Notes under the pieces: generated by a model | The model's database searches: none | What the model was told of the DNA's origin: nothing | The model's input: the letters and a program-made list of their open reading frames with translations, nothing else | Made by a program: the position numbers and the translations under genes | Part shown: positions 1-10,360 of the stretch, piece by piece | How the letters are laid out: each line of letters opens with the position of its first letter | How positions within the stretch are numbered: the first letter of the stretch is position 1 | DNA from: Fibrobacter sp. UBA1313 | GTDB taxonomy: Bacteria > Fibrobacterota > Fibrobacteria > Fibrobacterales > Fibrobacteraceae | Assembly (NCBI GenBank): GCA_002307115.1 | Contig: DBTP01000108.1 | Location: 1-10,360 of the forward strand | Reading direction: 5' to 3' | Length of the DNA: 10,360 nt

Positions 1-1
1 T

Positions 2-91
2 AAGGTTGATACTGCGAAGACCGCCACCGTGAAGCCTGCTACTCCAGTAGCCAAGACTGACACGACGAAAACTGCTCCGGTTAAGAAATAA
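2..91 (+). CDS. 3' end (partial) of an upstream gene; Lys/Thr/Ala/Pro-rich basic C-terminal tail (...KTATVKPATPVAKTDTTKTAPVKK*)
   Basis: Frame 2 is open from the window edge to TAA at 89-91. The low-complexity basic tail resembles C-terminal extensions of histone-like or nucleic-acid-binding proteins. A hairpin terminator follows. Confidence 0.3.
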   Translation, partial: KVDTAKTATVKPATPVAKTDTTKTAPVKK

Positions 92-117
92 TTTCGCAAA
101 TCCTTTGAATCTTAAAG

Positions 118-152
118 AAAAGCAGAGTGATCCCTCTGCTTTTCTTATATTT
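118..152 (+). terminator. Rho-independent terminator: perfect 10-bp stem AAAAGCAGAG / CTCTGCTTTT, 6-nt loop, then CTTATATTT
   Basis: Inverted repeat read directly from the sequence (118-127 / 134-143), followed by a T-rich tract. The T-tract runs into the TATATT element upstream of argA. Confidence 0.55.
146..151 (+). promoter_or_regulatory. -10-like hexamer TATATT at -12..-7 relative to the argA ATG (geometry for a leaderless or very short leader transcript)
   Basis: TATATT ends 6 nt before the ATG at 158. No Shine-Dalgarno motif. The same arrangement recurs at three other operon-first genes in the window. Confidence 0.3.
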
Positions 153-157
153 AAAGC

Positions 158-1510
158 ATGGAAACTATTACGGATTTTAATGATCAAAAACTGGAAGTTG
201 CCAGTTTTATTCGGGAAGTGTTCAGTTACATTAACCGGTTTAAAGGTCAGTTGTTTGTCCTTAAAATAGAAGACAGCCTGATGGATCATCCGTTGTTTCC
301 TGTTTTGATGCGGGATATTACGCTTTTGCATAAGGCGGGCGTAAAGTTTTTAATCGTACCGGGCACTCGGAAAAGTATTGACAAACAGTTGGTTGCTTGG
401 GAAATAAAGTCTCAGTTCCAGGAAGGGATTCGGCTGACCAGCGAAGAGGCGCTGCCTCTGATTGAACAGGCTTCTTTGGGCGTTGCGCAACGGATTATGA
501 GTCACTTGACGGCAAGTGGTTGCCATGGTATCCAAGGCAACTGGGTCATGGCGCGGAGCATTGGAATCATCAATGGTGTTGATTATATGCGGACGGGAAA
601 AATTGAACGCATTCAAAAAGATATTTTGGAACATTTGCTTGCAGAAGATTTTATTCCGATTCTTCCGCCGATTGGTTGGAATAAATTAGGCCATGCTTAC
701 AATATTTCGAGCACGGAACTCGCTACAGAACTTTGCAAGTATCTTTCTGTCGGAAAATTGTTCTTTATTGGAAGTGAAAATGGGATTCAGGCCAATGGTT
801 TAAAAACAGGGCCTAATACCAAATATCTTGAATCCACGGACAGCGGTGTTATTTCGGCGCTGGACATCGATCAAGCTCAAGAAATTTTGGATCTCAATCC
901 CAAAACGCTTAATTATGCGCAAGTGGATTATTTGATTAATGCCATTCGTGGCTGTAAAGCAGGGGCTAATCGGGTACATCTGGTCAGTGGTGAAATTCAG
1001 GGAAGTGTACTTCAGGAAGTTTTCTCCAGTCAGGGCGATGGCACCATGGTGTACGCTAACCAGTATTCCAGTATTCGGCCCGCAGCGATTGACGACATTC
1101 CCGATATTTTGCGGATTATGCAGGATTATATCGCCAAGGGATTTTTGATCCCCCGGACTCAGGAATCCATTTCGGAGAAGTTGCCGGATTATGTGGTCTA
1201 CTCTATTGATAATGCGATTCATGGATGTGGTGCCCTGCACGCCTTTGAAGAGAATATGGCGGAACTTGCCGCGATAGCGGTGGCTGTAAATTATCGGAAA
1301 TCGGGTGTGGGTGAAGCGATTGTGAGACATTTGATTTCGACAGCGCGGATGCGGGGTTATAAGAAGGTTTTTCTTTTAACGACGCAGGCATTGGATTGGT
1401 TCTACCCGTTTGGTTTTTGTGATGGAACCGTTGATGATTTACCGCCGTCTAAGAAAGCCACATATAATACCGAAAGAAATTCTCGGATCTTGTTGCTTTC
1501 GCTGGAGTAA
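158..1510 (+). CDS. argA: Amino-acid N-acetyltransferase (N-acetylglutamate synthase): N-terminal amino-acid-kinase fold plus C-terminal GNAT domain
   Basis: 450 aa, similar to ArgA (E. coli ArgA is 443 aa by recollection). N-terminal match: ...[40 protein letters not shown]... parallels ArgA ...[39 protein letters not shown].... C-terminal match: [13 protein letters not shown]...[19 protein letters not shown] parallels ArgA KLFVLTTRSIHWF...LPESKKQLYNYQRKSKVLM. Confidence 0.85.
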
Positions 1511-1512
1511 AA

Positions 1513-2076
1513 ATGATGGATTTGGCAAAGATGGAAGATGGCTTTCGGTTGATTCTTGAAGGCATGGGTGAGGATGTTCATCGCGAAGGCTTGATTGATA
1601 CGCCACGTCGCGTGGCAAAAATGTATCAGGAATTGCTGGTCGGATTAACCGATGGCGTCAATGAAGATGATCTTTTGAGTACACAGTTTACTGAAGCTTA
1701 CGATGAGATGATTCTTTTGAAGGATATCCCTTTCGTGAGTATGTGTGAACATCATTTTTTGCCTTTTATCGGAAAAGCACATGTGGCGTATATTCCGAAT
1801 GATCGTATTGTGGGCCTTTCGAAATTGGCGCGTACGGTGGATTATTATGCGAAGCGCCCTCAGGTGCAGGAACGTATGACGCGGCAGATTGCAGAACTGA
1901 TCCAGAAACAATTGAATCCGAAAGGGGTTGCGGTTGTGGTGGAAGCGACTCATAGTTGCATGACGGTTCGTGGAGTCAAGAAGCAGGGTTCCGTGATGTT
2001 TACGAGTCAACTTTTGGGGCTTTTTAAACGCAGCGAAAAAACGCGTGCAGAATTTATGGCGCTGATTCACGGATAA
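1513..2076 (+). CDS. folE: GTP cyclohydrolase I
   Basis: 187 aa carrying the FolE hallmark motifs: [16 protein letters not shown], the CEHHFLPF zinc-binding region, and [15 protein letters not shown]. The start lies 2 nt after the argA stop, preceded by GGAG (SD-like). Confidence 0.9.
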
Positions 2077-2144
2077 ATTATTAGTTCACCTTCATTTGAT
2101 GCTTTTATATATCTTTCTCAAGGGTTTCTTTTGCGAGGATTTAT

Positions 2145-3227
2145 ATGAGCTTATTGGATAAAATTAAGGGTGAATTTATTGATATCGTCGAACATTTAGA
2201 AGATGGCGGCGATACTTTGGTTTGGCGCTTTCCCCGCTACCAAAATGAAATTAAAAATGGGGCTCGATTGGTTGTCCGTGAAGGACAAATAGCAGTCCTT
2301 GTGAACGAAGGACAGTTGGCCGATATTTTCCATCCGGGAACTTATTCCTTAACCACTCAAAACCTACCGATTCTCTCCACACTCAAGGGCTGGAAATTTG
2401 GTTTTGATAGTCCATTTAAAGTCGAAGTTTATTTTGTAAGTAGTCGCCGATTTACAGATCAGAAATGGGGGACTCGCAATCCGGTGATGACGCGCGATGC
2501 TCAATTCGGGATGGTGCGTCTCCGCGCCTATGGATCTTATGTGCTTCAAGTGGCTGATGTGCATCAATTGATGTCTCAGATTGTGGGCACTCAAGCGCAG
2601 TTTGATGTGGATGAAATTACGGAACAAGTGCGCAATCTTGTGGTTTCTCGTTTTGGTGATATTATCGGGGATGCAAAAATTCCCGTTCTGGATTTGGCCC
2701 CTCATTACGATGAACTGGGACAATTAGTGGAAAAGAGAGTCCAAAAGGAAATTGCAGAATACGGTTTGAAGTGCTTCCAATTGCTGGTGGAAAATATTTC
2801 TGTCCCTGAAGAAGTGGAACGGAGCATGGATAAGCGTGCCAGTATGAGCGTTGTCGGTGAATCTGATTACACGCGCTATCAGATGGCGACTGCGACTGAA
2901 GTGGCGGCAGGGAACCCGGGAGGTGTCGCTGCGGGGGGGATGGGACTCGGTATGGGTTTTGGAATGGCGCAGCAAATGGTCAACCCCGCTCAGAATCCGC
3001 CGTCGCTCCCTAGTGGCGTGAATGAGGCGATTTGGTGGATTGCTCTGGAGGGTGTGAAGAACGGTCCCCACACGCTCGCTGCGCTTTCTCTGCTCAGTGC
3101 TTCCGGGAAGTTGAATCCAGAAACACTGGTGTGGAAACAAGGTATGGCGAATTGGATCCCGGCGCGTGAAGTGATTGAATTACGGTCTGTGTTCCCGATG
3201 GAACCCCCTCCGCTTCCGAAGGTATAA
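2145..3227 (+). CDS. SPFH/band-7 family protein of the COG4260 / Band_7_1 type (B. subtilis YdjI-like) with a Gly/Met-rich linker and a C-terminal GYF-like (DUF4339-type) domain
   Basis: 360 aa. N-terminus MSLLDKIKGEFIDIVEHLEDGGDTLVWRFPRYQNEIKNGARLVVREGQIAVLVNEGQLADIF...FTDQKWGTRNPVMTRD...LRAYGSYV is characteristic of the soluble SPFH/Band_7_1 family. The C-terminal ~50 aa AIWWIALEGVKNGPHTLAALSLLSASGKLNPETLVWKQGMANWIPAREV fit the GYF/DUF4339 pattern. GAGGA sits 5 nt upstream of the ATG. Confidence 0.8.
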   Translation: MSLLDKIKGEFIDIVEHLEDGGDTLVWRFPRYQNEIKNGARLVVREGQIAVLVNEGQLADIFHPGTYSLTTQNLPILSTLKGWKFGFDSPFKVEVYFVSSRRFTDQKWGTRNPVMTRDAQFGMVRLRAYGSYVLQVADVHQLMSQIVGTQAQFDVDEITEQVRNLVVSRFGDIIGDAKIPVLDLAPHYDELGQLVEKRVQKEIAEYGLKCFQLLVENISVPEEVERSMDKRASMSVVGESDYTRYQMATATEVAAGNPGGVAAGGMGLGMGFGMAQQMVNPAQNPPSLPSGVNEAIWWIALEGVKNGPHTLAALSLLSASGKLNPETLVWKQGMANWIPAREVIELRSVFPMEPPPLPKV

Positions 3228-3229
3228 TT

Positions 3230-3865
3230 ATGCCTATTTGCGTTCATTGTGGGGCTCCTTTGCGCGAGGGGCGTCCTGTTTGTGATTACTGTAAAGCGAC
3301 AAACGACGTGGATTTGTCGGGGCGCCATTATTTTACTACGCATCTTCCAGAGAAAGCACGCACCTGTCCACAATGCCATTCTGAAATGGAAGTGGTGGAT
3401 ATCGGCGTGCCTGGGAAACCGTTTTACTTAGATCGCTGTTCAACGTGTTTGGGAATTTTCTTTGATACGGGCGAGTTAGATGTTCTGGTGCACGAAACGA
3501 TTCAGGGCGTGGCGCATATCAATAATGTAAGGCTCTCGGCCTTGCGCACGGCGGCTCCAGAATCTTCAGAGATCGTTCGGTATCGTCCGTGCCCCGAATG
3601 CGGTAAACTGATGAACCGAGAAAATTACGGAACCTATTCGGGAATCATTTTGGATCGGTGTCGCGATCATGGTGTGTTTTTGGATGCAGGGGAACTGTAT
3701 CGAATTTTTCTTTGGGTTCGCGCTGGGGGAAGTTTGTTGAAACCCCCGCCAGAACCAGAACGCACAAAGCAGCCGCTTTCGCCGATGGAAATAGAAGAGG
3801 AAAATTCTACTTCGGTTTCTTTGATGGATGTGGTGATGGGAGTCTTCAAATTTTTGGGCGGTTGA
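3230..3865 (+). CDS. Multi-zinc-ribbon protein: an N-terminal CxxC...CxxC ribbon plus two tandem TFIIB-type ribbon repeats (YdjG-like)
   Basis: 211 aa. C4/C7...C18/C21. Then CPQCHSEM...LDRCSTCLGIFFDTGEL (aa 46-83), repeated as CPECGKLM...LDRCRDHGVFLDAGEL (aa 121-156). The Ser/Glu-rich C-terminus ends in a hydrophobic tail (VVMGVFKFLGG). The start is 2 nt after the SPFH gene stop (taattATG). Confidence 0.75.
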   Translation: MPICVHCGAPLREGRPVCDYCKATNDVDLSGRHYFTTHLPEKARTCPQCHSEMEVVDIGVPGKPFYLDRCSTCLGIFFDTGELDVLVHETIQGVAHINNVRLSALRTAAPESSEIVRYRPCPECGKLMNRENYGTYSGIILDRCRDHGVFLDAGELYRIFLWVRAGGSLLKPPPEPERTKQPLSPMEIEEENSTSVSLMDVVMGVFKFLGG

Positions 3866-3872
3866 AGTCCGT

Positions 3873-4958
3873 TTATTCCGTGGGGATTCCAAATCGTTTG
3901 AGATGGCAATAGGCTATTTCGCCAGTTTTCTCATCGCGAAGATGCAAACTCCCGCCTTCGCAGTAGCGCCAGTATTTGCAAGTGGCGCAGTCGCCTTTTT
4001 TGGTCCAAGAACGATCTCGCATCACTTGAAAACGATTGTTCCAGACGTCCATAAAATCATCGCGGTAAATGTTCCCTTGAATGTAATCTCCGCGCAAAGA
4101 GGGACAGGCCGAGATGGAGCCATCGGCGAGTACGGAACCGACATTGATTCCGGCGCGGCAGAAGAAAGGATTACTGCGCACTTGATTTTCATAGTCTCCG
4201 AGGAATCCTTCACAGCCGTAGTCGGCCCGGATTTTCCCCTGCAGGCGCGTTTCGCGGATAAAATCGAAAACGCGTTTAAATTCCAAATCACTCAATTTGA
4301 AAATGGGGTTTTCCTTGGCGCGGCCTTTGGGAAAAACCGTCGCGATCCGCCAGCGTTTGAGCTTTAGGTCGATAAGCATGTCCCGGATTTCGGGGAGCTC
4401 CGGCAGGTTTTCTTTGTTGACGCAGGTGACTACATCAAAGAGGAGCCCAGGCGTATGAGAGGCCCAGCGGATAGTATCGACCGCTTTTTCAAAAGAATGT
4501 TCGCGGCCACGGAAATGATCGTGAGAACGATGCAGACCATCAAGACTCACCGTCATGGAACGGAGCCCAGCCGTCAGTAAATTTTTAAACCGTGGCAACG
4601 TCATAGCAAATCCGTTGGTGACAAAGCCCCAGGGGAAACCGCGATCCATAAACGCTTTGCCTGCTTCCTCCAAATCCTTGCGCATCAGAGGTTCACCGCC
4701 GGTGACGACAATCAGGGTTCGCGATGGATTAACGTGTGGGCGAACGTTGTCGAGCACTTTTAAGAAGTCAGCGAGAGGCATATCGGGGTCGGCTTCGCAA
4801 CGACAATCACTGCCGCAGTGTAGACAATTCAGATTGCAGCGAAGCGTACATTCCCAAAAGAAATACGAAAGCGTATGGCTTTTCGCAAGGGAATGACGAT
4901 AAAAACGATGGACTTCAAGCGCGGCTTGCTTCTTGAAAGGAAGGACGTTCTGACTCAT
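3873..4958 (-). CDS. Radical SAM enzyme with a C-terminal SPASM/twitch auxiliary Fe-S domain (probable protein/peptide-modifying maturase)
   Basis: 361 aa. CxxxCxxC radical-SAM cluster motif (C-NLN-C-LH-C followed by GSDC). GGE-like SAM motif VTGGEPLM. The C-terminal Cys array CRAG...SAC...CATCKYWRYCEGG...YC is typical of SPASM domains. The N-terminal stretch before the cluster is short (about 45 aa), so there is no RRE-type leader-recognition domain. Confidence 0.85.
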   Translation of the reverse strand: MSQNVLPFKKQAALEVHRFYRHSLAKSHTLSYFFWECTLRCNLNCLHCGSDCRCEADPDMPLADFLKVLDNVRPHVNPSRTLIVVTGGEPLMRKDLEEAGKAFMDRGFPWGFVTNGFAMTLPRFKNLLTAGLRSMTVSLDGLHRSHDHFRGREHSFEKAVDTIRWASHTPGLLFDVVTCVNKENLPELPEIRDMLIDLKLKRWRIATVFPKGRAKENPIFKLSDLEFKRVFDFIRETRLQGKIRADYGCEGFLGDYENQVRSNPFFCRAGINVGSVLADGSISACPSLRGDYIQGNIYRDDFMDVWNNRFQVMRDRSWTKKGDCATCKYWRYCEGGSLHLRDEKTGEIAYCHLKRFGIPTE

Positions 4959-5998
4959 TATTTTTCTTCAGAGGTTTCGGAAGAGGAAGACTCTGTGGCA
5001 TCCGGGCAACGGTAGCATCCATCCCCTTCAACATAGATCAGAGAACTTGTGGATTCGTTAGGATTGATCGGGTATGAAATTCCATAAAGAGGAGCAAATT
5101 CGGTTAATACACAATTTGTTTTGTTCGAAATAGAACCTTCGCTCAGCGCGGAAGCCAGTTGGGCTTCCGTAATTTCCAAAGAGCAATCATCGTAGGAGGT
5201 GCGGCTCGAAGAAGATTTTGGAGTACTAGAAGATGAACTTGAAGAAACGCTGGAGGAGGATTGCGCTACCGATGATGAGGATTCGTCACCCGGGCAACGA
5301 TAGCATCCCACGCCTTCCTGATAGATAAGAGCTGGACCGGAGTTCACACTGGACGCATCGGAAGAATAAGGAACGCCATAGTCTGTGGCGACTTCCCCTA
5401 AACTGCAAAGTGCTTTGTCATAAATGGAGCCCTCACTCAGGGCTGCCTCTAAGGACGCTTCCGTAATCTCAAGGCTACAACCTTCAACAGAAGTGCTACT
5501 GGATGACGATGCCTGTTCACTGGAAGATGAATTCGTGGCAACGCTGGAAGAAGACGATGCCGAAGAGGAGGAGATTTCGTCATTCGGACAACGATAACAA
5601 CCCACACCATCTTCATAAATAAGCGTTGTGGAGGCGTTCACTTTGGCGATGGAATCGAACATCGCAGGCGAACCGTAAAGGGCAATAATGTTCCCTAAAG
5701 CACAGGTTGTCTTGTCCGTGATGTAACCATTGTCGAGAGCGGTTTGCAACTGCGCTTCCGTATATTCCAGAGAGCAAAGATCAAAAGTACTGGAGCTAGA
5801 AGAGGATGATTCGTTTGTCGCTGTGCTGGAGGATGTTTCTGTAGAAGAGGAGGATGGATCTCCACAGACATCGGAAGGACACCCGTACAAAGTGGCACTA
5901 TTGCTGGTCGATTCATCACACCCGGCCCAAAAGAATGCACACAGGGAAAGCAGTACTTTTTCCCACTTGGAACGAGATTTATTCAGAATGCGTTTCAT
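4958..5998 (-). CDS. Secreted, probably lipidated, Ser-rich protein with three tandem ~99-aa repeats, each holding a ~65-aa 4-Cys domain (C-x23-C-x34/35-C-x2-C) plus a poly-Ser linker
   Basis: 346 aa. Signal peptide MKRILNKSRSKWEKVLLSLCAFFWAG|C has a lipobox-like FWAGC. Repeats begin at C75, C174 and C272. Repeat consensus: CSLEITEAqLxxALseGsIxdKtxCxLgE...YG.pY...LIY.EGvGCYRCPxDE. The linkers are poly-Ser. The stop overlaps the rSAM start as TAATG (4956-4960). Confidence 0.8.
   Translation of the reverse strand: MKRILNKSRSKWEKVLLSLCAFFWAGCDESTSNSATLYGCPSDVCGDPSSSSTETSSSTATNESSSSSSSTFDLCSLEYTEAQLQTALDNGYITDKTTCALGNIIALYGSPAMFDSIAKVNASTTLIYEDGVGCYRCPNDEISSSSASSSSSVATNSSSSEQASSSSSTSVEGCSLEITEASLEAALSEGSIYDKALCSLGEVATDYGVPYSSDASSVNSGPALIYQEGVGCYRCPGDESSSSVAQSSSSVSSSSSSSTPKSSSSRTSYDDCSLEITEAQLASALSEGSISNKTNCVLTEFAPLYGISYPINPNESTSSLIYVEGDGCYRCPDATESSSSETSEEK
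4994..5782 (-). repeat. Three diverged tandem coding repeats of ~297 bp (units about 5486-5782, 5189-5485 and 4994-5188) inside the lipoprotein gene
   Basis: The periodicity is visible at DNA level (catccgggcaacggtagcatcc / cacccgggcaacgatagcatcc / cattcggacaacgataacaaccc, about 290 bp apart) and at protein level (Cys174 vs Cys75 = 99 aa; Cys272 vs Cys174 = 98 aa). Diverged and in-frame, so not a CRISPR array. Confidence 0.75.
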
Positions 5999-6005
5999 GA
6001 TAGGA

Positions 6006-6011
6006 AATATA
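6006..6011 (-). promoter_or_regulatory. -10-like TATATT at -13..-8 relative to the lipoprotein ATG (minus strand: ...ttgatttatatttcctatcATG), no SD
   Basis: Read from the reverse complement of 5999-6020. Same element and spacing as upstream of argA, the GIY-YIG gene and the membrane-protein gene. Confidence 0.3.
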
Positions 6012-6082
6012 AATCAAGAAATAATGGTGTAATTCGGTTTTTAATACCTTTCGATGTTGGTTTCAAAGATACAGATAAACTA

Positions 6083-6406
6083 TCACGCATTTTTGCTGCT
6101 TTTGGCTAAGAAGCCGAGTACAATGAAGGAAATTACAATGGTTAGGATTAAATGAATGTCGGTCAGATTCGTTAAAAATTGACGGAGAAATCGTACGGCC
6201 TGGGAAGAAATGAATCCATAGCCGGCGCCGCACAAGATTACAAAAAATACAAATCGTCCAAGAAACGGAAGCTTTTGGGTCAATTTGCGCGCATATTGGT
6301 TGATGGTGCCACCGTAAATCGTGAGAATTGTGGAGATGAGACCCACGGAAATGGAGACTAAATGCAAGCGTAAAAAATCAGCAAAGTCACGGATGTAATT
6401 TTCCAT
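6083..6406 (-). CDS. Small integral membrane protein, about 3 predicted TM helices (hypothetical; possibly DUF3392-like)
   Basis: 107 aa with three hydrophobic stretches (LHLVSISVGLISTILTIYGG, FVFFVILCGAGYGFISS, IHLILTIVISFIVLGFL). It sits directly upstream (84 bp) and on the same strand as the lipoprotein-rSAM pair. TATATT lies at -14..-9 of its ATG, with a perfect TATAAT about 20 nt further upstream. Confidence 0.55.
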   Translation of the reverse strand: MENYIRDFADFLRLHLVSISVGLISTILTIYGGTINQYARKLTQKLPFLGRFVFFVILCGAGYGFISSQAVRFLRQFLTNLTDIHLILTIVISFIVLGFLAKSSKNA

Positions 6407-6414
6407 AGGGGAAA

Positions 6415-6420
6415 AATATA
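6415..6420 (-). promoter_or_regulatory. -10-like TATATT at -14..-9 of the membrane-protein ATG (minus strand: ...catataatcgcaacagaaaatatatttttcccctATG)
   Basis: Read from the reverse complement of 6407-6450. A canonical TATAAT also lies about 20 nt further upstream. No SD. Confidence 0.3.
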
Positions 6421-6643
6421 TTTTCTGTTGCGATTATATGAACAGGGGCATGATTAATTCTGCGACTGGCACGCGACTTTTCTGGAACGAGAACCAAGTG
6501 TGTCTATAACTTAGGGGCGAATCCTTGCATCACGAGCGAGAGTTCTAGGCGGAAGGTTCTGTGGTTGATGATTCGAATGGACTACTGCTTCCTCTACTAT
6601 TGATGAAGTTCTTTTTTTTAGCAGGGGTGGCGGCAAATATCTT

Positions 6644-8800
6644 TTACGCTGGTTTTGCTACAAGGGTGATTACGGTGTCCCCTTTTGTTTTGTACGCGAA
6701 GCCTTCGCCCTCGTCATAGCGATATTCTTGTACAACCGTTTTCTTAAATCCCGGTTTAATGTAAAGGGGCAATTGGGCGCGTGAAAGATCTAGGTCCGCT
6801 GTGCTCGTGGCACAGTTCTTTTTGAACTGGGGAACAAGGCTGCCGTTCCTTACAAATACAGGGAATCCGCTGGGTTTCAGCTTCCAATCGAAGGCTTTTC
6901 CTCCTGCGTACCATTTCTCATCGGCGAGGCAAAACCAGTCGCCTTTCGGTAACTGGACTTCGCGGGATTGTGTCTTCGGTTCGAGAATGGGGGCCACTAA
7001 AAGATTATCACCGATCAAAAATTCATCTTCAAAATGAGATGGAGCTATTGTCGCCGCTGCTTTGCCGAGGTAGAAAAGGGGACGCATGACGGGGGCACCT
7101 GTGCGCTCGTGCTCCATAAAGGTTTCGTAAAGGTAGGGGAGCATCCGGTAGCGGAATTGGATGCACTCGCGAATGCGGGCGAGTGCTTTTTTGCTGAACT
7201 GCCATGGTTCCTGTTCTTTGGCATCTTTTGCACTATGAATCCGGAAAAATGGGAAAAGACACGCCGCTTCTACCCAGCGCACCAGGAGTTCTTCCGTCAC
7301 GTCGTCCCCGAATCCACCGACATCCGCGCCTACAAAAGGAACTCCGCTCATGGAAAGCCCAAGAGCCATGGGAATGCTTGCCTTGAGGTGACGCCAATGG
7401 CTGAAATTATCGCCGAGCCAGAGGGCCGCATACTGGCCGATTCCCGTGCTTCCGCTTCTGGAAAGCAAAAAGGGCCGCGTGTCGGGACGGCTTTCGAGAA
7501 GCCCCTTCCGTGTCGCTTTTGCCATCCCTGTCGCATACTGGTTATGATAAGTTTCATGAGAGGCTTTTCCATGATTGAAAAGCATTTCCTCTTGCGTCAC
7601 GGACCCTGTGGAAGGGTCATTCATATCGAGCCAGAAACCCGAAAATCCTTTTTTGGAAAAGGCGCAGACCTGATCTTTCCACCAATTTTTTCCTTTGTCT
7701 GTACTGAAATCGGGGAACAGCGTCGCCCCGGGCCATACAAAGCCACGGTAAAGATCGCCGTTGGAATTTTTGCAAAAGGCGTTTTGTGCTACGCCGCTTT
7801 GTCTCACAGAATAGCCTTTCTCATCGCGGACACCCGGATCCAGAATGGTGACCACATGCCGCCCTTTTTTGAGGAGCTTCGCCATCGTTGTCTCTGGATT
7901 TTTAAACGTTTTCGGATTCGTTGTGAAAACTTTGTAGCAATCCATAGAGTCAATGTCGAGCCAGAGCCCATCGCAGGGAATCCCCGCTTTTGTCATCTCA
8001 AAGTCCAAACGCTCCAAGTCTTTCGTGCCCGAATATCCCCAGCGGCATTGATGATATCCGAGGCTCCAGAGCGGAGGCCGGGGCGTGGTGCCCACAAGCC
8101 TTCCGTAGCGCCTCAAAACACTCGCCACATCTTGGCCGGTGATCAAGAAAATTTCCGCCGGGCCTTGAGTAGAACCCCAATAGAAAGACGATCCTTCCAC
8201 TTTCTCCTGACTCGGGTGCAGACGCATATCCGGGTTCAGCGAAAAAAATACGGCGCGAGGATTGTGAACCAGAATGCCGAGAGCTTCATGGCCGCGTTTC
8301 AAAAGGAGAAACGGAATGTTCGCGTAAAAAGGATCGGGGTTACCGTCGCGGCACGCGAAAACGCCGTGTGAACCCCACGCATCCACATTCCACATCTGTG
8401 TGCGCATACCTGTCTTTTCGAGAGATCCTGTTTTGGCGCCGAGGCCGTAGAACTCATTCTTTTGTTCTGGGGTGAAACGCATGACCCAGCTATTTTGCGC
8501 CGTGCCAAAAAATCCTTCTTTCGCACTTTCCAAAAGGCACGTCCCTTGGGGAGAAAAAACACGCAATCGTCCCGCTTCAAAACGCACATTTCCGATGGTA
8601 TTCTCGGACGGAAAATAAGGCGTCAGGACTGCTTCATCGGGAGGCAAGTTCGATTCACCGGGAAGCGTTTCCTCAGAATCGTGGCGGATGCGCAAACGCC
8701 AGATGCCATTGCCAAAGTCCTTGAGTTCCGTTGTGAAGGGGAATGTTCCCTGTGGTGGGAACTTAAAATTCACAGGGTGAGGAATCTTTGAGAAATCCAT
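6644..8800 (-). CDS. Glycoside hydrolase family 31 enzyme (alpha-glucosidase / alpha-xylosidase type)
   Basis: 718 aa containing the GH31 catalytic-nucleophile signature GFWLDMNDPS, plus surrounding conserved blocks (DGLWLDIDSMD, WPGATLFPDF, GDNFSHWRHL). AAGAAGG (SD-like) lies upstream of the ATG. Confidence 0.9.
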   Translation of the reverse strand: MDFSKIPHPVNFKFPPQGTFPFTTELKDFGNGIWRLRIRHDSEETLPGESNLPPDEAVLTPYFPSENTIGNVRFEAGRLRVFSPQGTCLLESAKEGFFGTAQNSWVMRFTPEQKNEFYGLGAKTGSLEKTGMRTQMWNVDAWGSHGVFACRDGNPDPFYANIPFLLLKRGHEALGILVHNPRAVFFSLNPDMRLHPSQEKVEGSSFYWGSTQGPAEIFLITGQDVASVLRRYGRLVGTTPRPPLWSLGYHQCRWGYSGTKDLERLDFEMTKAGIPCDGLWLDIDSMDCYKVFTTNPKTFKNPETTMAKLLKKGRHVVTILDPGVRDEKGYSVRQSGVAQNAFCKNSNGDLYRGFVWPGATLFPDFSTDKGKNWWKDQVCAFSKKGFSGFWLDMNDPSTGSVTQEEMLFNHGKASHETYHNQYATGMAKATRKGLLESRPDTRPFLLSRSGSTGIGQYAALWLGDNFSHWRHLKASIPMALGLSMSGVPFVGADVGGFGDDVTEELLVRWVEAACLFPFFRIHSAKDAKEQEPWQFSKKALARIRECIQFRYRMLPYLYETFMEHERTGAPVMRPLFYLGKAAATIAPSHFEDEFLIGDNLLVAPILEPKTQSREVQLPKGDWFCLADEKWYAGGKAFDWKLKPSGFPVFVRNGSLVPQFKKNCATSTADLDLSRAQLPLYIKPGFKKTVVQEYRYDEGEGFAYKTKGDTVITLVAKPA

Positions 8801-8811
8801 GAGAGGCCTTC

Positions 8812-9111
8812 TTATGCAGATTTTTTTTGAGTCTTTGCTTTTGGAATAAAACAGGGGAGTTCCCCTTCTTTTATACCGATCAACATTTCTTTTTCTTCTT
8901 TGGTGCGCGATTTAATCAGAGCTTCCAAACGAAGTGCTTCGGATTTGGTTTCAACTTCAAAAAATTTCAGAATTTTTTCTGGGGGAAAAGCGCGGGTAAA
9001 ATTGGCCCCCTTGCCGCTCAGATGTTTTTCAAAGCGCGCCTGCACATCCGTTGCGTATCCCGTATAAATGCGATTTCCGGCACAGCGAAGCATATAGACA
9101 AAGTGGGGCAT
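8812..9111 (-). CDS. GIY-YIG nuclease-superfamily small protein (YhbQ / UPF0213-like)
   Basis: 99 aa. N-terminal FVYMLRCAGNRIYTGYATD matches the GIY-YIG motif, with a conserved E further downstream. TATATT lies at exactly -12..-7 of the ATG. The stop is 11 nt before the GH31 start. Confidence 0.75.
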   Translation of the reverse strand: MPHFVYMLRCAGNRIYTGYATDVQARFEKHLSGKGANFTRAFPPEKILKFFEVETKSEALRLEALIKSRTKEEKEMLIGIKEGELPCFIPKAKTQKKSA

Positions 9112-9124
9112 AGTCGGAATATAA

Positions 9125-9155
9125 GAAAAAAGCCCCCGGAATGGTTCCGGAGGCT
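9125..9155 (-). terminator. Rho-independent terminator of rpsA (minus-strand RNA: GCCUCCGGAA-CCA-UUCCGGGGGC with one G-U pair, followed by UUUUUU)
   Basis: Inverted repeat 9131-9141 / 9145-9155, with an A-run at 9126-9130 on the plus strand (U-run on the minus transcript). It sits immediately after the rpsA stop (9182) and immediately before the GIY-YIG start. Confidence 0.65.
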
Positions 9156-9181
9156 TTCTTATACATTCAAAGTCAGAAAAA

Positions 9182-10360
9182 TTATTCTTCTGTCTTCACT
9201 TCTTCTGCAACTTCTGGAGCTTCTGTAGCTTCAGTGGTTTCTGTCTTTTCTGCTTTCTTCTTAGGAGCTTTCTTCTTAGGAGCTGGAGCAACGGCTTCAC
9301 CGATGGTCGTTCCATTTTCGCCTGGCTTATGAGAATTCATCCAGGTTTGCAGTTCCGCAGATTCGCGGTTCTTGAAGTAGTCTACCACAGAGAGATAAAG
9401 CTTGCGGTTGTTCTGATCGATTTCGGTAACGATCGCCGGGAGCTCGTCGCCAACCTTGAACGCATCGGCCGGAACCTTGATGTATTCAGCGGTGAGCTTG
9501 GAGACAGGTACGAAACCTTCCAAACCATCAGCGAGTTCCACAACAACGCCGCGATCGAGCATACGGACAATCTTGCCCTTCACTTCGGCATCGACAGGGA
9601 AGTTGGTTTCCACAGCATCCCAAGGATCTTCTTCAAGGTGCTTCATGGAAAGAGAAATACGACGCTTCTCACGATCAACCGCGAGCACCACGCATTCCAC
9701 TTTGTCGCCCTTCTTGACGAGTTCGCTCGGATGGGTAATCTTCTTAGTCCAGGACATATCGGATACATGGATCAAACCGTCCACACCTTCCTTGATTTCG
9801 ACGAAGGCGCCGAAAGAAGCGAGGTTGCGGATTTCGCCCACGACGCGTGCGCCCGGAGGAAGTTCGGATTCGATGGATTCCCAAGGATCGGCTTCGAGTT
9901 GCTTGAGGCCCAAGGAAATGCGTTCGGCATCTTCTTCCACTTTGAGCACCACGGCTTCCACTTCCTGACCTGGAACGAGGATTTTGGACGGATGCTTCAC
10001 GTGCTGGGTCCAAGACATTTCGGATACATGGATGAGGCCTTCCACACCGCTGTCGAGTTCAATGAACGCGCCGTAATCGGTGATGGAAACCACTTTACCC
10101 TTAACGACCATGCCTTCTGGGTAACGGGCTGCAACGTCTTTCCACGGATGTGGTTTAAGCTGCTTCATGCCCAAAGAAATGCGTTCCTTCTTGTCGTTGA
10201 AATCGAGTACCATGACTTCGACTTCCTGACCGAGGGAAACCATTTCGGACGGGTGATTGATGCGCTTGTAGGACATATCGGTAATGTGGAGAAGACCATC
10301 CACGCCGCCGAGATCGATAAAGGCGCCAAAGTCCGTGATATTCTTGACAATACCCTTGCG
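9182..10360 (-). CDS. rpsA: 30S ribosomal protein S1 (C-terminal portion; the gene continues beyond the window end)
   Basis: Repeated S1 domains of the form G..V.G.V......GAFVEL..GVEGLIHVS.MSW. Strong similarity to E. coli S1 throughout. The frame is open to the window edge at 10360. Lys/Glu-rich C-terminal tail. Confidence 0.9.
   Translation of the reverse strand, partial: RKGIVKNITDFGAFIDLGGVDGLLHITDMSYKRINHPSEMVSLGQEVEVMVLDFNDKKERISLGMKQLKPHPWKDVAARYPEGMVVKGKVVSITDYGAFIELDSGVEGLIHVSEMSWTQHVKHPSKILVPGQEVEAVVLKVEEDAERISLGLKQLEADPWESIESELPPGARVVGEIRNLASFGAFVEIKEGVDGLIHVSDMSWTKKITHPSELVKKGDKVECVVLAVDREKRRISLSMKHLEEDPWDAVETNFPVDAEVKGKIVRMLDRGVVVELADGLEGFVPVSKLTAEYIKVPADAFKVGDELPAIVTEIDQNNRKLYLSVVDYFKNRESAELQTWMNSHKPGENGTTIGEAVAPAPKKKAPKKKAEKTETTEATEAPEVAEEVKTEE

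Follow-up and report, generated by a model that had tools for sequence, protein, structure and literature searches.

An SPFH gene followed by a gene for a zinc-ribbon protein was analysed in a 10,360-nucleotide stretch of DNA from Fibrobacter sp. UBA1313 (contig DBTP01000108.1, positions 1 to 10,360), the whole of which is called the window below. Unless otherwise stated, coordinates refer to the plus strand of the window. In agreement with the original prediction, which had been made from the DNA letters without database searches, the listing of open reading frames (ORFs) placed both genes on the same strand, the SPFH gene at 2145-3227 (360 aa) and its zinc-ribbon partner at 3230-3865 (211 aa). 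The pairing of these two proteins is widespread and uncharacterised, and the window holds an ordinary chromosomal instance of it. By its gene content, the locus is not a Psp system. On balance, we favour reading the pair as a self-contained, PspA-independent module, in which a Band_7_1 SPFH scaffold would have a dedicated zinc-ribbon protein, itself soluble, as its adaptor or regulator.

The same pair was found, identical, on three independent metagenome contigs from JGI 3300075153, SRR5325159 and JGI 3300001213, the longest of 13,981 bp, and its nearest named relatives were Fibrobacter and Fibrobacteres metagenome-assembled genomes (MAGs). Related loci were fetched and are numbered with the prefix L; the alignments of SPFH orthologues and of zinc-ribbon proteins are referred to as A1 and A2, respectively. 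Both start codons were consistent with these alignments, M1 of the SPFH protein being invariant in A1 and C4, C7, C18 and C21 of the zinc-ribbon protein being conserved in A2. The SPFH gene is separated from the preceding folE gene by an AT-rich intergenic region of 68 nt (2077-2144), with a GAGGA Shine-Dalgarno-like motif 8-12 nt 5' of the ATG. This region is the likely site of a putative promoter of the pair's own; the argA-like gene and folE, which lie 5' of the pair in the window, are not kept beside it in L003, L172 and L174. A scan for the sigma-70 consensus returned no convincing promoter 5' of the pair, 2077-2144 included, and a terminator scan gave sites too few over shuffle expectation for interpretation. 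At the junction of the two genes (3225-3232) the sequence reads gtaTAAttATG, so that stop and start lie 2 nt apart as originally described, and the Shine-Dalgarno-like GAAGG of the zinc-ribbon gene sits within the 3' end of the SPFH gene. The layout is compatible with translational coupling.

The SPFH protein was assigned to Band_7_1 (PF13421) by Pfam with an E-value of 7.8e-98 (326.7 bits against a cutoff of 24), the match covering residues 26-235 (2220-2849) and positions 1-210 of the 211 in the profile. Long helices span residues 155-255 in the AlphaFold2 (AF2) model, which had a mean predicted local distance difference test score (pLDDT) of 73.8. A Foldseek search with this model returned human stomatin, HflK/C, prohibitin, erlin, flotillin and QmcA at a probability of 1.00 and with E-values down to 3.4e-9. 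All of these proteins form rings or cages. The SPFH domain is followed by a hydrophobic, Gly/Ala/Met-rich, low-complexity linker (residues 256-293, 2910-3023; NPGGVAAGGMGLGMGFGMAQQMVNPAQNPPSLP) with pLDDT below 50, a GYF_2 domain (PF14237, E 1.4e-17, residues 297-346, 3033-3182) and a PPPLP motif (residues 354-358, 3204-3218) close to the C-terminus, where the protein ends in PPPLPKV. This order is a property of the family: in the A1 consensus, the linker core NPGG..GMGLGMGFGMAQQM is kept together with a subsequent PPPLPG-type motif, then follow the GYF domain and a terminal PPPLP. Similar Gly/Ala/Met-rich segments were seen in relatives with SHOCT, HTH_17 or poly-Pro tails, and the linker is the counterpart of the low-complexity region described in B. 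subtilis YdjI, also named SamI.

No transmembrane (TM) segment was found in the SPFH protein, in which the highest 19-residue Kyte-Doolittle mean was 0.98. The lack of an intrinsic membrane anchor and the low-complexity region after the SPFH domain are features that it has in common with SamI. The C-terminal zinc finger or zinc ribbon (ZnR) of YdjI/SamI is absent; the tail is GYF_2 and contains no cysteine cluster. Judged from its sequence, the protein is a bona fide member of Band_7_1, as had been proposed. In architecture, however, it is no orthologue of YdjI, given that it carries a GYF domain as its tail instead of a zinc finger.

The nearest solved relative of the GYF domain in a Protein Data Bank (PDB) sequence search was the GYF domain of M. 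xanthus GltJ (PDB 7z3c, E 5.9e-7), and the NCBIfam model of GltJ gave a partial match over residues 294-354, with 29.6 bits against a cutoff of 450. The GltJ domain is a bacterial GYF that binds a proline-rich sequence via a non-canonical surface (PMC11135422). The PPPLP motif of the SPFH protein is a candidate for such a proline-rich GYF ligand, which could be bound within one chain or between subunits. The GYF domain had been regarded as a gain of this particular protein. That view was not borne out: 7,960 homologues with Band_7_1 and GYF_2 were recorded at E<=1e-10 among 8,000 scored candidates, the best 120 of the 7,960 all carried both domains, and a list of GYF architectures from 2007 (PMC2034487) had already included 'SPFH/Band 7+GYF'. 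The phyla represented among these 120 include Fibrobacterota, Bacteroidota, Planctomycetota, Gemmatimonadota, Myxococcota, Gammaproteobacteria and Actinomycetota, among others. SPFH+GYF is thus an old and very common multi-phylum architecture.

Two stretches of the partner were assigned to Zn_ribbon_TFIIB (PF13453), with 49.5 bits against a cutoff of 22 (E 2.7e-13), which supports the double TFIIB-type ribbon of the original prediction; a further CxxC...CxxC ribbon lies at the N-terminus and brings the number of ribbons to three, two of them PF13453. This N-terminal ribbon, ZnR0 (residues 4-21, 3239-3292), contains the ligands C4, C7, C18 and C21 in the pattern CxxCGAPL...CxYCxxxNDxDL and is conserved in A2. 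ZnR1 (3362-3493; Pfam residues 45-87) is the first PF13453 unit, composed of the ligands C46, C49, C70 and C73 and a GIFFDTGELD helix, for which the orthologue alignment gave GxFFDxGELE; it was modelled with pLDDT 84-90 and is joined by a helical linker to the second PF13453 unit, ZnR2 (3581-3721; ligands C121, C124, C144, H147; pLDDT 78-93). The C46/C49/C70/C73 and C121/C124/C144/H147 sets were invariant over the 29 sequences of A2, and ZnR2, with the pattern YxxCPxCxKLMNRxNxGxxSGVxxDxCxxHGxxLDxGEL, was the most conserved block of the family. Downstream of the ribbons lies a variable, charged (K/E-rich) and disordered linker (residues 165-196, 3722-3817; pLDDT 39-52), and the protein closes with a conserved amphipathic helix (residues 197-209, 3818-3856; SLMDVVMGVFKFL), seen as a helix at 199-209 in the AF2 model, whose mean pLDDT was 71.2. 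The C-terminal helix, of about 13 residues, was present in nearly all orthologues, with a hydrophobic moment among the top 0-9% of each protein's 11-residue windows, and is a candidate membrane-targeting or docking helix. Its end, ...GVFKFLGG, presumably resembles the membrane-targeting sequence of MinD, a likeness that we take as a lead only. No TM segment was found in the zinc-ribbon protein (highest 19-residue Kyte-Doolittle mean 1.16).

An exhaustive profile search returned 1,020 clusters at 50% identity of this zinc-ribbon protein with E<=1e-30 and 6,775 with E<=1e-10, so the family is sizeable, yet much smaller than the SPFH-GYF family. Neither a solved structure nor a paper describing it was found in sequence and fold searches of the PDB and in the literature. 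With the whole model, Foldseek returned nothing significant from the PDB, which is unsurprising when a model is flexible and has several domains; the sequence search gave a weak match only, to 8yoz at ZnR1 (E 0.25), on which no paper was found. Likewise, no description of this SPFH/zinc-ribbon pairing was found in the literature, nor, essentially, any dedicated work on PF13421, Band_7_1, COG4260 or PF13453.

Conservation of the pair was assessed from both sides. From the SPFH side, the loci of 80 species were fetched with the SPFH-GYF alignment, and L003, a Fibrobacter MAG, was added from a separate look-up, giving 81. A partner of the window type was located directly downstream and on the same strand in 7/80 loci, namely in one Fibrobacteres MAG, Geobacter (2), Desulfuromonadales, Desulforapulum and two delta- or unclassified proteobacterial MAGs, and also in L003; L172 and L174 provided further pairs. 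Within a neighbour-joining tree, the partner-bearing SPFH proteins formed two separate clades, and the partner was present in all informative members of both (Fibrobacterota-type 3/3, Desulfobacterota-type 6/6), in line with the earlier expectation that related genomes would keep the pair together. The pair persisted amid unrelated flanks in L003, L025, L010, L016, L039, L053, L057, L058, L172 and L174, of which L039 and L057 are Geobacter MAGs. Since the flanking genes are unrelated from locus to locus, the two genes are the sole conserved unit. The tight stop-to-start spacing of the window is not a conserved feature, as the gaps in orthologous pairs ranged from 1 to 203 nt. Fibrobacterota-type loci and L172 had the narrow ones, of 1-13 nt, whereas those of the Desulfobacterota-type loci measured 30-203 nt.

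From the side of the partner, a metagenome scan with the zinc-ribbon alignment alone retrieved 80 loci. An adjacent Band_7_1 gene was present in 43 of them (in 15 upstream and on the same strand, which is the order of the window, in 22 divergent, and in 6 downstream, again on the same strand), a count biased to positives, because a short contig can score only as a positive; 10 informative loci had no Band_7_1 neighbour and 27 were too short to judge. When at least 1.3 kb of upstream sequence was required, a Band_7_1 neighbour was recorded in about 18 of 33 loci. Half to four-fifths of the partner's relatives thus adjoin a Band_7_1 gene, which is far beyond chance. More distant relatives of the zinc-ribbon protein (27-31% identity) were unlinked to SPFH genes. 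The GYF domain was present in only 5 of the 43 SPFH neighbours; the others examined ended in SHOCT (L111, L119, L120), HTH_17 (L084, L138, L143, L169) or poly-Pro (L116, L125) tails, the HTH_17 tail being found in every divergent locus examined. All of these tails, GYF_2 included, come after the common Gly/Ala/Met-rich segment and are interchangeable. The variety of tails indicates that what the zinc-ribbon protein is associated with is the Band_7_1 core rather than GYF.

A second type of partner was encountered among the SPFH-GYF loci. Cluster 0, comprising ZnR-TM proteins of about 370 aa, occupied the downstream position in 39/81 loci, compared with 8 for the window-type partner, and was about five times commoner than the latter among the sampled genomes; roughly 34 loci had neither type, some SPFH genes being truly solo and others lying on short or badly called high-GC contigs. 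Cluster 0 genes were located in L005-L083 directly 3' of the SPFH gene (e.g. L048 9102-10232, L005 3102-4208), and one Bacteroidales locus, L048, contained two tandem genes of this type (9102-10232, 10219-11331) after its SPFH-GYF gene. In the encoded proteins, which are uncharacterised, two ribbons at the N-terminus are combined with a large conserved globular domain and, at the C-terminus, with a strong TM helix (Kyte-Doolittle 2.0-3.6 in most). No Pfam model covered the globular domain, which is characterised by the motifs WFAPN, PYWT.D, RW.PVSG, EPWDL, DIGGD and NGRTGEV.GERP. More than 5,400 homologues were returned by a profile search, mostly unannotated or 'hypothetical', and no YdjG label was present among the best 120 of them. 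Some members matched PF08271 (TF_Zn_Ribbon), the family cited for YdjG, whose published description names two ZnRs together with a YpeB/NTF2-like domain and a TM segment (PMC11237479). By this match to the published architecture, cluster 0 is probably the YdjG/SamG family.

The partner in the window had been called YdjG-like, which applies to its N-terminal part. Comparison of the window-type and cluster 0 profiles with hhalign gave 94.4% probability and an E-value of 8.8e-8 over window residues 2-108, the part in common being ZnR0 (C4/C7/C18/C21) and the CPxC knuckle that follows it. A hidden Markov model (HMM) of the cluster 0 region beyond residue 115, which covers the globular domain and the TM helix, found nothing in the window at E<=1. 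No YpeB/NTF2-like domain is present in the zinc-ribbon protein, whose 211 aa leave no room for it, and the C-terminal TM segment of YdjG is absent as well (Kyte-Doolittle maximum 1.16 against 2.0-3.6 in most cluster 0 proteins). As far as can be read from the sequence, the protein thus lacks two of the three features that define YdjG, and is not YdjG-like beyond the common N-terminal ribbons. Both partner types occurred together with one SPFH gene in L084-87, L112 and L131, which represent three independent contexts; this joint presence weakens the proposal that the window-type partner is a plain replacement of a TM-anchored, YdjG-type partner.

A further arrangement around the SPFH-GYF gene was observed in 12-16 gammaproteobacterial loci (L011, L028, L036, L045, L056, L071 and others), in which XpaC-like (PF10112) and TelA toxic-anion-resistance (PF05816) genes precede it, just 5' of the SPFH gene at about 5900-8000; approximately half of these loci also had a cluster 0 gene after the SPFH gene. 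The arrangement looks like a larger conserved membrane-stress operon, for which no description was found.

For the module that we favour, the following mechanism can be sketched. The SPFH protein would oligomerise beneath the cytoplasmic membrane, by analogy with SamI/YdjI and other SPFH proteins. The zinc-ribbon protein would bind the conserved Band_7_1 core rather than the GYF tail, most plausibly and mainly via ZnR0, the element common to both partner families. Its C-terminal amphipathic helix would tether or target the complex to the membrane, or dock on the SPFH ring, while the GYF domain would recruit a proline-rich client or cross-link subunits via the family's own PPPLP motifs. Precedent for such a division of labour comes from B. 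subtilis, where the anchorless YdjI/SamI reaches the membrane only with the ZnR membrane protein YdjG/SamG and with YdjH/SamH (PMC8581546; bioRxiv 2026.02.06.704340), and where SamI restrains its ribbon-bearing membrane partners in SamGHI (bioRxiv 2026.02.06.704340). About 44% of the GYF proteins of bacteria also contain a ZnR, and in GltJ each of the two domains is a protein-binding module (PMC11135422). By analogy with SamG/SamH/SamI, the module most likely organises the inner membrane or senses its state or envelope stress.

Several observations weigh against this reading. The partnership is not obligatory, as 73 of the 80 sampled SPFH-GYF genes had no partner of the window type. Conversely, 10 to 15 informative zinc-ribbon loci had no SPFH gene within 5 kb, among them a coherent subgroup (L096-L109) of heterogeneous contexts. 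The occurrence of both partner types beside one SPFH gene in L084-87, L112 and L131 argues that the window-type partner is not simply a substitute membrane anchor, and the amphipathic helix could dock a protein instead of the membrane. A KPPPEP proline stretch in the window partner is not conserved among orthologues and lends no support to a docking of GYF on the partner. As a general mechanism, KPPPEP was rejected as the proline-rich ligand of the GYF domain, because the stretch is unconserved and the partner also pairs with GYF-less SPFH proteins. Finally, the Pfam name of PF13453, 'transcription factor zinc-finger', leaves room for a role with nucleic acids.

This last point leads to the main rival explanation, in which the pair serves signalling: the zinc-ribbon protein would be a nucleic-acid-binding regulator, held at the membrane by the SPFH oligomer and freed upon membrane stress, in the manner of PspA-PspF or an anti-sigma factor. 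Besides the Pfam name, relatives of the protein are labelled 'Zn-finger nucleic acid-binding protein' by JGI; in the commonest arrangement (22 loci) the partner is divergent from the Band_7_1 gene, and each tail examined there was the DNA-binding HTH_17; and in B. subtilis the loss of SamI leads to a global transcriptional change through unrestrained SamGH signalling (bioRxiv 2026.02.06.704340). Family names do not, however, amount to evidence from experiments, and the literature search brought up no PF13453 protein that binds DNA. Those characterised ribbons that are tied to GYF (GltJ) or are structurally alike (ZitP) bind proteins (PMC11135422), the fold search with the whole model gave no significant match to DNA-binding proteins, and the conserved amphipathic helix and the disordered linker are more in keeping with a tether than with a transcription factor. 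We therefore consider the signalling explanation unlikely, while leaving it a real chance of being correct.

A different reading takes the pair as a reduced Psp-type module, serving a PspA/IM30 protein, perhaps together with a YdjH-like protein, that is encoded elsewhere in the genome and tethered as by YdjGHI. It draws on the common Band_7_1 core and on the requirement of YdjI for PspA foci in B. subtilis (PMC8581546). The window itself contains no pspA or ydjH, as had been noted before: its proteins gave no match to PF04012 (PspA_IM30), DUF4178 or TPM. A phmmer search with E. coli PspA returned nothing at E<=10 in the window and 90 related loci (91 sequences, 1.17 Mb), and no PspA-like ORF was present within about 8 kb of the 80 SPFH-GYF loci or in the other fetched loci. 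The lack of pspA is therefore the rule for this SPFH subfamily and not a reduction specific to the locus. A YdjH-type gene, recognised by DUF4178 according to the original prediction or by a TPM domain according to Ravi et al., was found neither in the window nor in the Pfam-labelled orthologous contexts. The coupling to pspA has been described as typical of Firmicutes (Ravi et al., PMC11237479), and even in B. subtilis PspA is not required for SamI's developmental phenotype (bioRxiv 2026.02.06.704340). The SPFH tail (GYF versus zinc finger) and the architecture of the partner are, moreover, both unlike those of YdjI and YdjG. On these grounds a Psp-type module is improbable. Of the minimal envelope-stress scaffold envisaged at the outset, the role as a membrane scaffold in envelope stress is still the most reasonable reading, but its minimal nature does not hold, given that the lack of pspA is general.

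An accessory role in anti-phage defence or on a mobile element was also weighed, as a link to stress and defence islands had been suggested. Some SPFH/Band-7 proteins do occur in conflict systems (cited in PMC11237479), and tblastn against phages returned six matches to the SPFH protein, all weak, Band_7_1-like and on unannotated 'Bacteriophage sp.' gut fragments. Against this, PADLOC assigned zero families to the SPFH and zinc-ribbon proteins, PHROGs gave no match of substance, tblastn against plasmids found no match for the zinc-ribbon protein, and the ORFs of the window showed no integrase, transposase or tRNA boundary. The neighbours are housekeeping genes that differ by locus (argA-like, folE, leuS-type tRNA synthetase, purine salvage). 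The suggested island link finds no backing here, and such a role is very improbable. Equally remote is a fortuitous adjacency of two independent proteins, for which it could be said that most SPFH-GYF genes lack a window-type partner and some partner genes an SPFH neighbour; it is effectively refuted by the neighbourhood statistics, as the pairing recurs across phyla, in three gene orders and amid unrelated flanks, and is invariant in both partner-bearing SPFH clades.

The self-contained SPFH/zinc-ribbon module may also be seen in a wider form, which is speculative and which we hold to be unlikely as a whole. The three-ribbon protein would here be a general and hitherto unrecognised soluble partner of Band_7_1 scaffolds with any tail in many phyla, and the pair a sensor of membrane damage or lipid packing, the helix detecting the state of the membrane and nucleating or releasing the SPFH cage. 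If true, such a sensor pair would be an envelope-maintenance system without PspA/ESCRT-III. More generally, bacterial SPFH proteins are abundant and poorly understood, and the sole Band_7_1 protein that has been studied, YdjI/SamI, is usually read via its link to PspA. The present data place the Band_7_1 core in a different setting: it is usually encoded without pspA, and it has at least two zinc-ribbon partner families with a common N-terminal ribbon, one of them soluble and ending in an amphipathic helix. What such modules conserve at their centre may be the binding of ribbon to SPFH core, PspA having been added specifically in the Firmicutes lineage, although no new kind of system is shown by this alone.

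The remaining genes of the window encode an argA-like N-acetylglutamate synthase, folE, a radical-SAM/SPASM enzyme, a Ser-rich lipoprotein, a DUF3392 protein, a GH31 glycosidase, a GIY-YIG protein and a partial rpsA. The radical-SAM/SPASM gene (3873-4958, minus strand) was assigned to TIGR04133, 'rSAM_w_lipo', with 558 bits against a cutoff of 425. It lies directly downstream of the gene for the Ser-rich predicted lipoprotein of 346 aa (4958-5998, minus strand), base 4958 being common to both. The lipoprotein had no Pfam or NCBIfam match and contains a repeat of about 95 aa in three diverged copies, all with CSLExTEAxL...GxGCYRCP and with poly-Ser runs between them; a tandem repeat was not detectable in its gene at the DNA level. 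Judged by sequence, the radical-SAM enzyme may have its substrate or partner in these Cys-rich repeats. The DUF3392 membrane-protein gene is located at 6083-6406 (minus strand) in the window and at 9748-10071 (minus strand) in L003, where it is convergent with and directly after the zinc-ribbon gene; it is about 2.2 kb farther off in the window, where, compared with L003, the radical-SAM and lipoprotein genes seem to be inserted in between. DUF3392 was considered as a third component of the module, but phmmer found none at the other loci and it was taken as local synteny. A 445-aa ORF at 7034-8371, antisense to the GH31 glycosidase gene (6644-8800, minus strand), is almost certainly a spurious shadow ORF.

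Among the systems with which the pair can be compared is the SPFH-GYF and cluster 0 pair: its SPFH-GYF protein is of the same kind, with 47-57% identity, its partner lies directly downstream on the same strand and carries a homologous N-terminal CxxCGAxL...CxYCG ribbon, and it differs in the globular domain and TM helix of cluster 0, both of which the window protein lacks. The B. subtilis operon PspA-YdjG-YdjH-YdjI (PspA-SamGHI) also encodes a zinc-ribbon protein, and in both cases the likely logic is that of an SPFH oligomer which, at the membrane, cooperates with a ribbon-bearing partner or holds it in check. In contrast, the window pair comes without pspA or a ydjH-type gene, its order is reversed, as the original prediction had pointed out, and only its two genes are conserved. 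By the published descriptions, the SPFH tail is GYF_2 in the window and a zinc finger in YdjI, and the partner is a soluble protein with three ribbons and an amphipathic helix, whereas YdjG combines two ribbons with a YpeB/NTF2-like domain and a TM segment. M. xanthus GltJ likewise couples a GYF domain of the GYF_2 type functionally to a zinc ribbon, both of them protein-binding; there, however, ZnR, linker and GYF form one membrane protein of the gliding machinery, while the window pair consists of two soluble proteins, its ribbon protein also pairs with GYF-less SPFH proteins, and the GltJ ribbon did not come up among the PDB sequence matches to the window ribbons. HflK/C-FtsH and QmcA-YbbJ (SPFH-NfeD) share the SPFH fold and the encoding of an SPFH cage beside a dedicated partner, but their SPFH proteins are anchored by an N-terminal TM segment or hairpin, and the partners NfeD and FtsH are unrelated to zinc ribbons. 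With E. coli PspABC(F) only the presumed theme of inner-membrane stress is held in common, as the window has no homologue of PspA, PspB, PspC or PspF. The pair is thus best described as a variant of the modules that combine an SPFH scaffold with a zinc-ribbon partner, only loosely related to the B. subtilis system.

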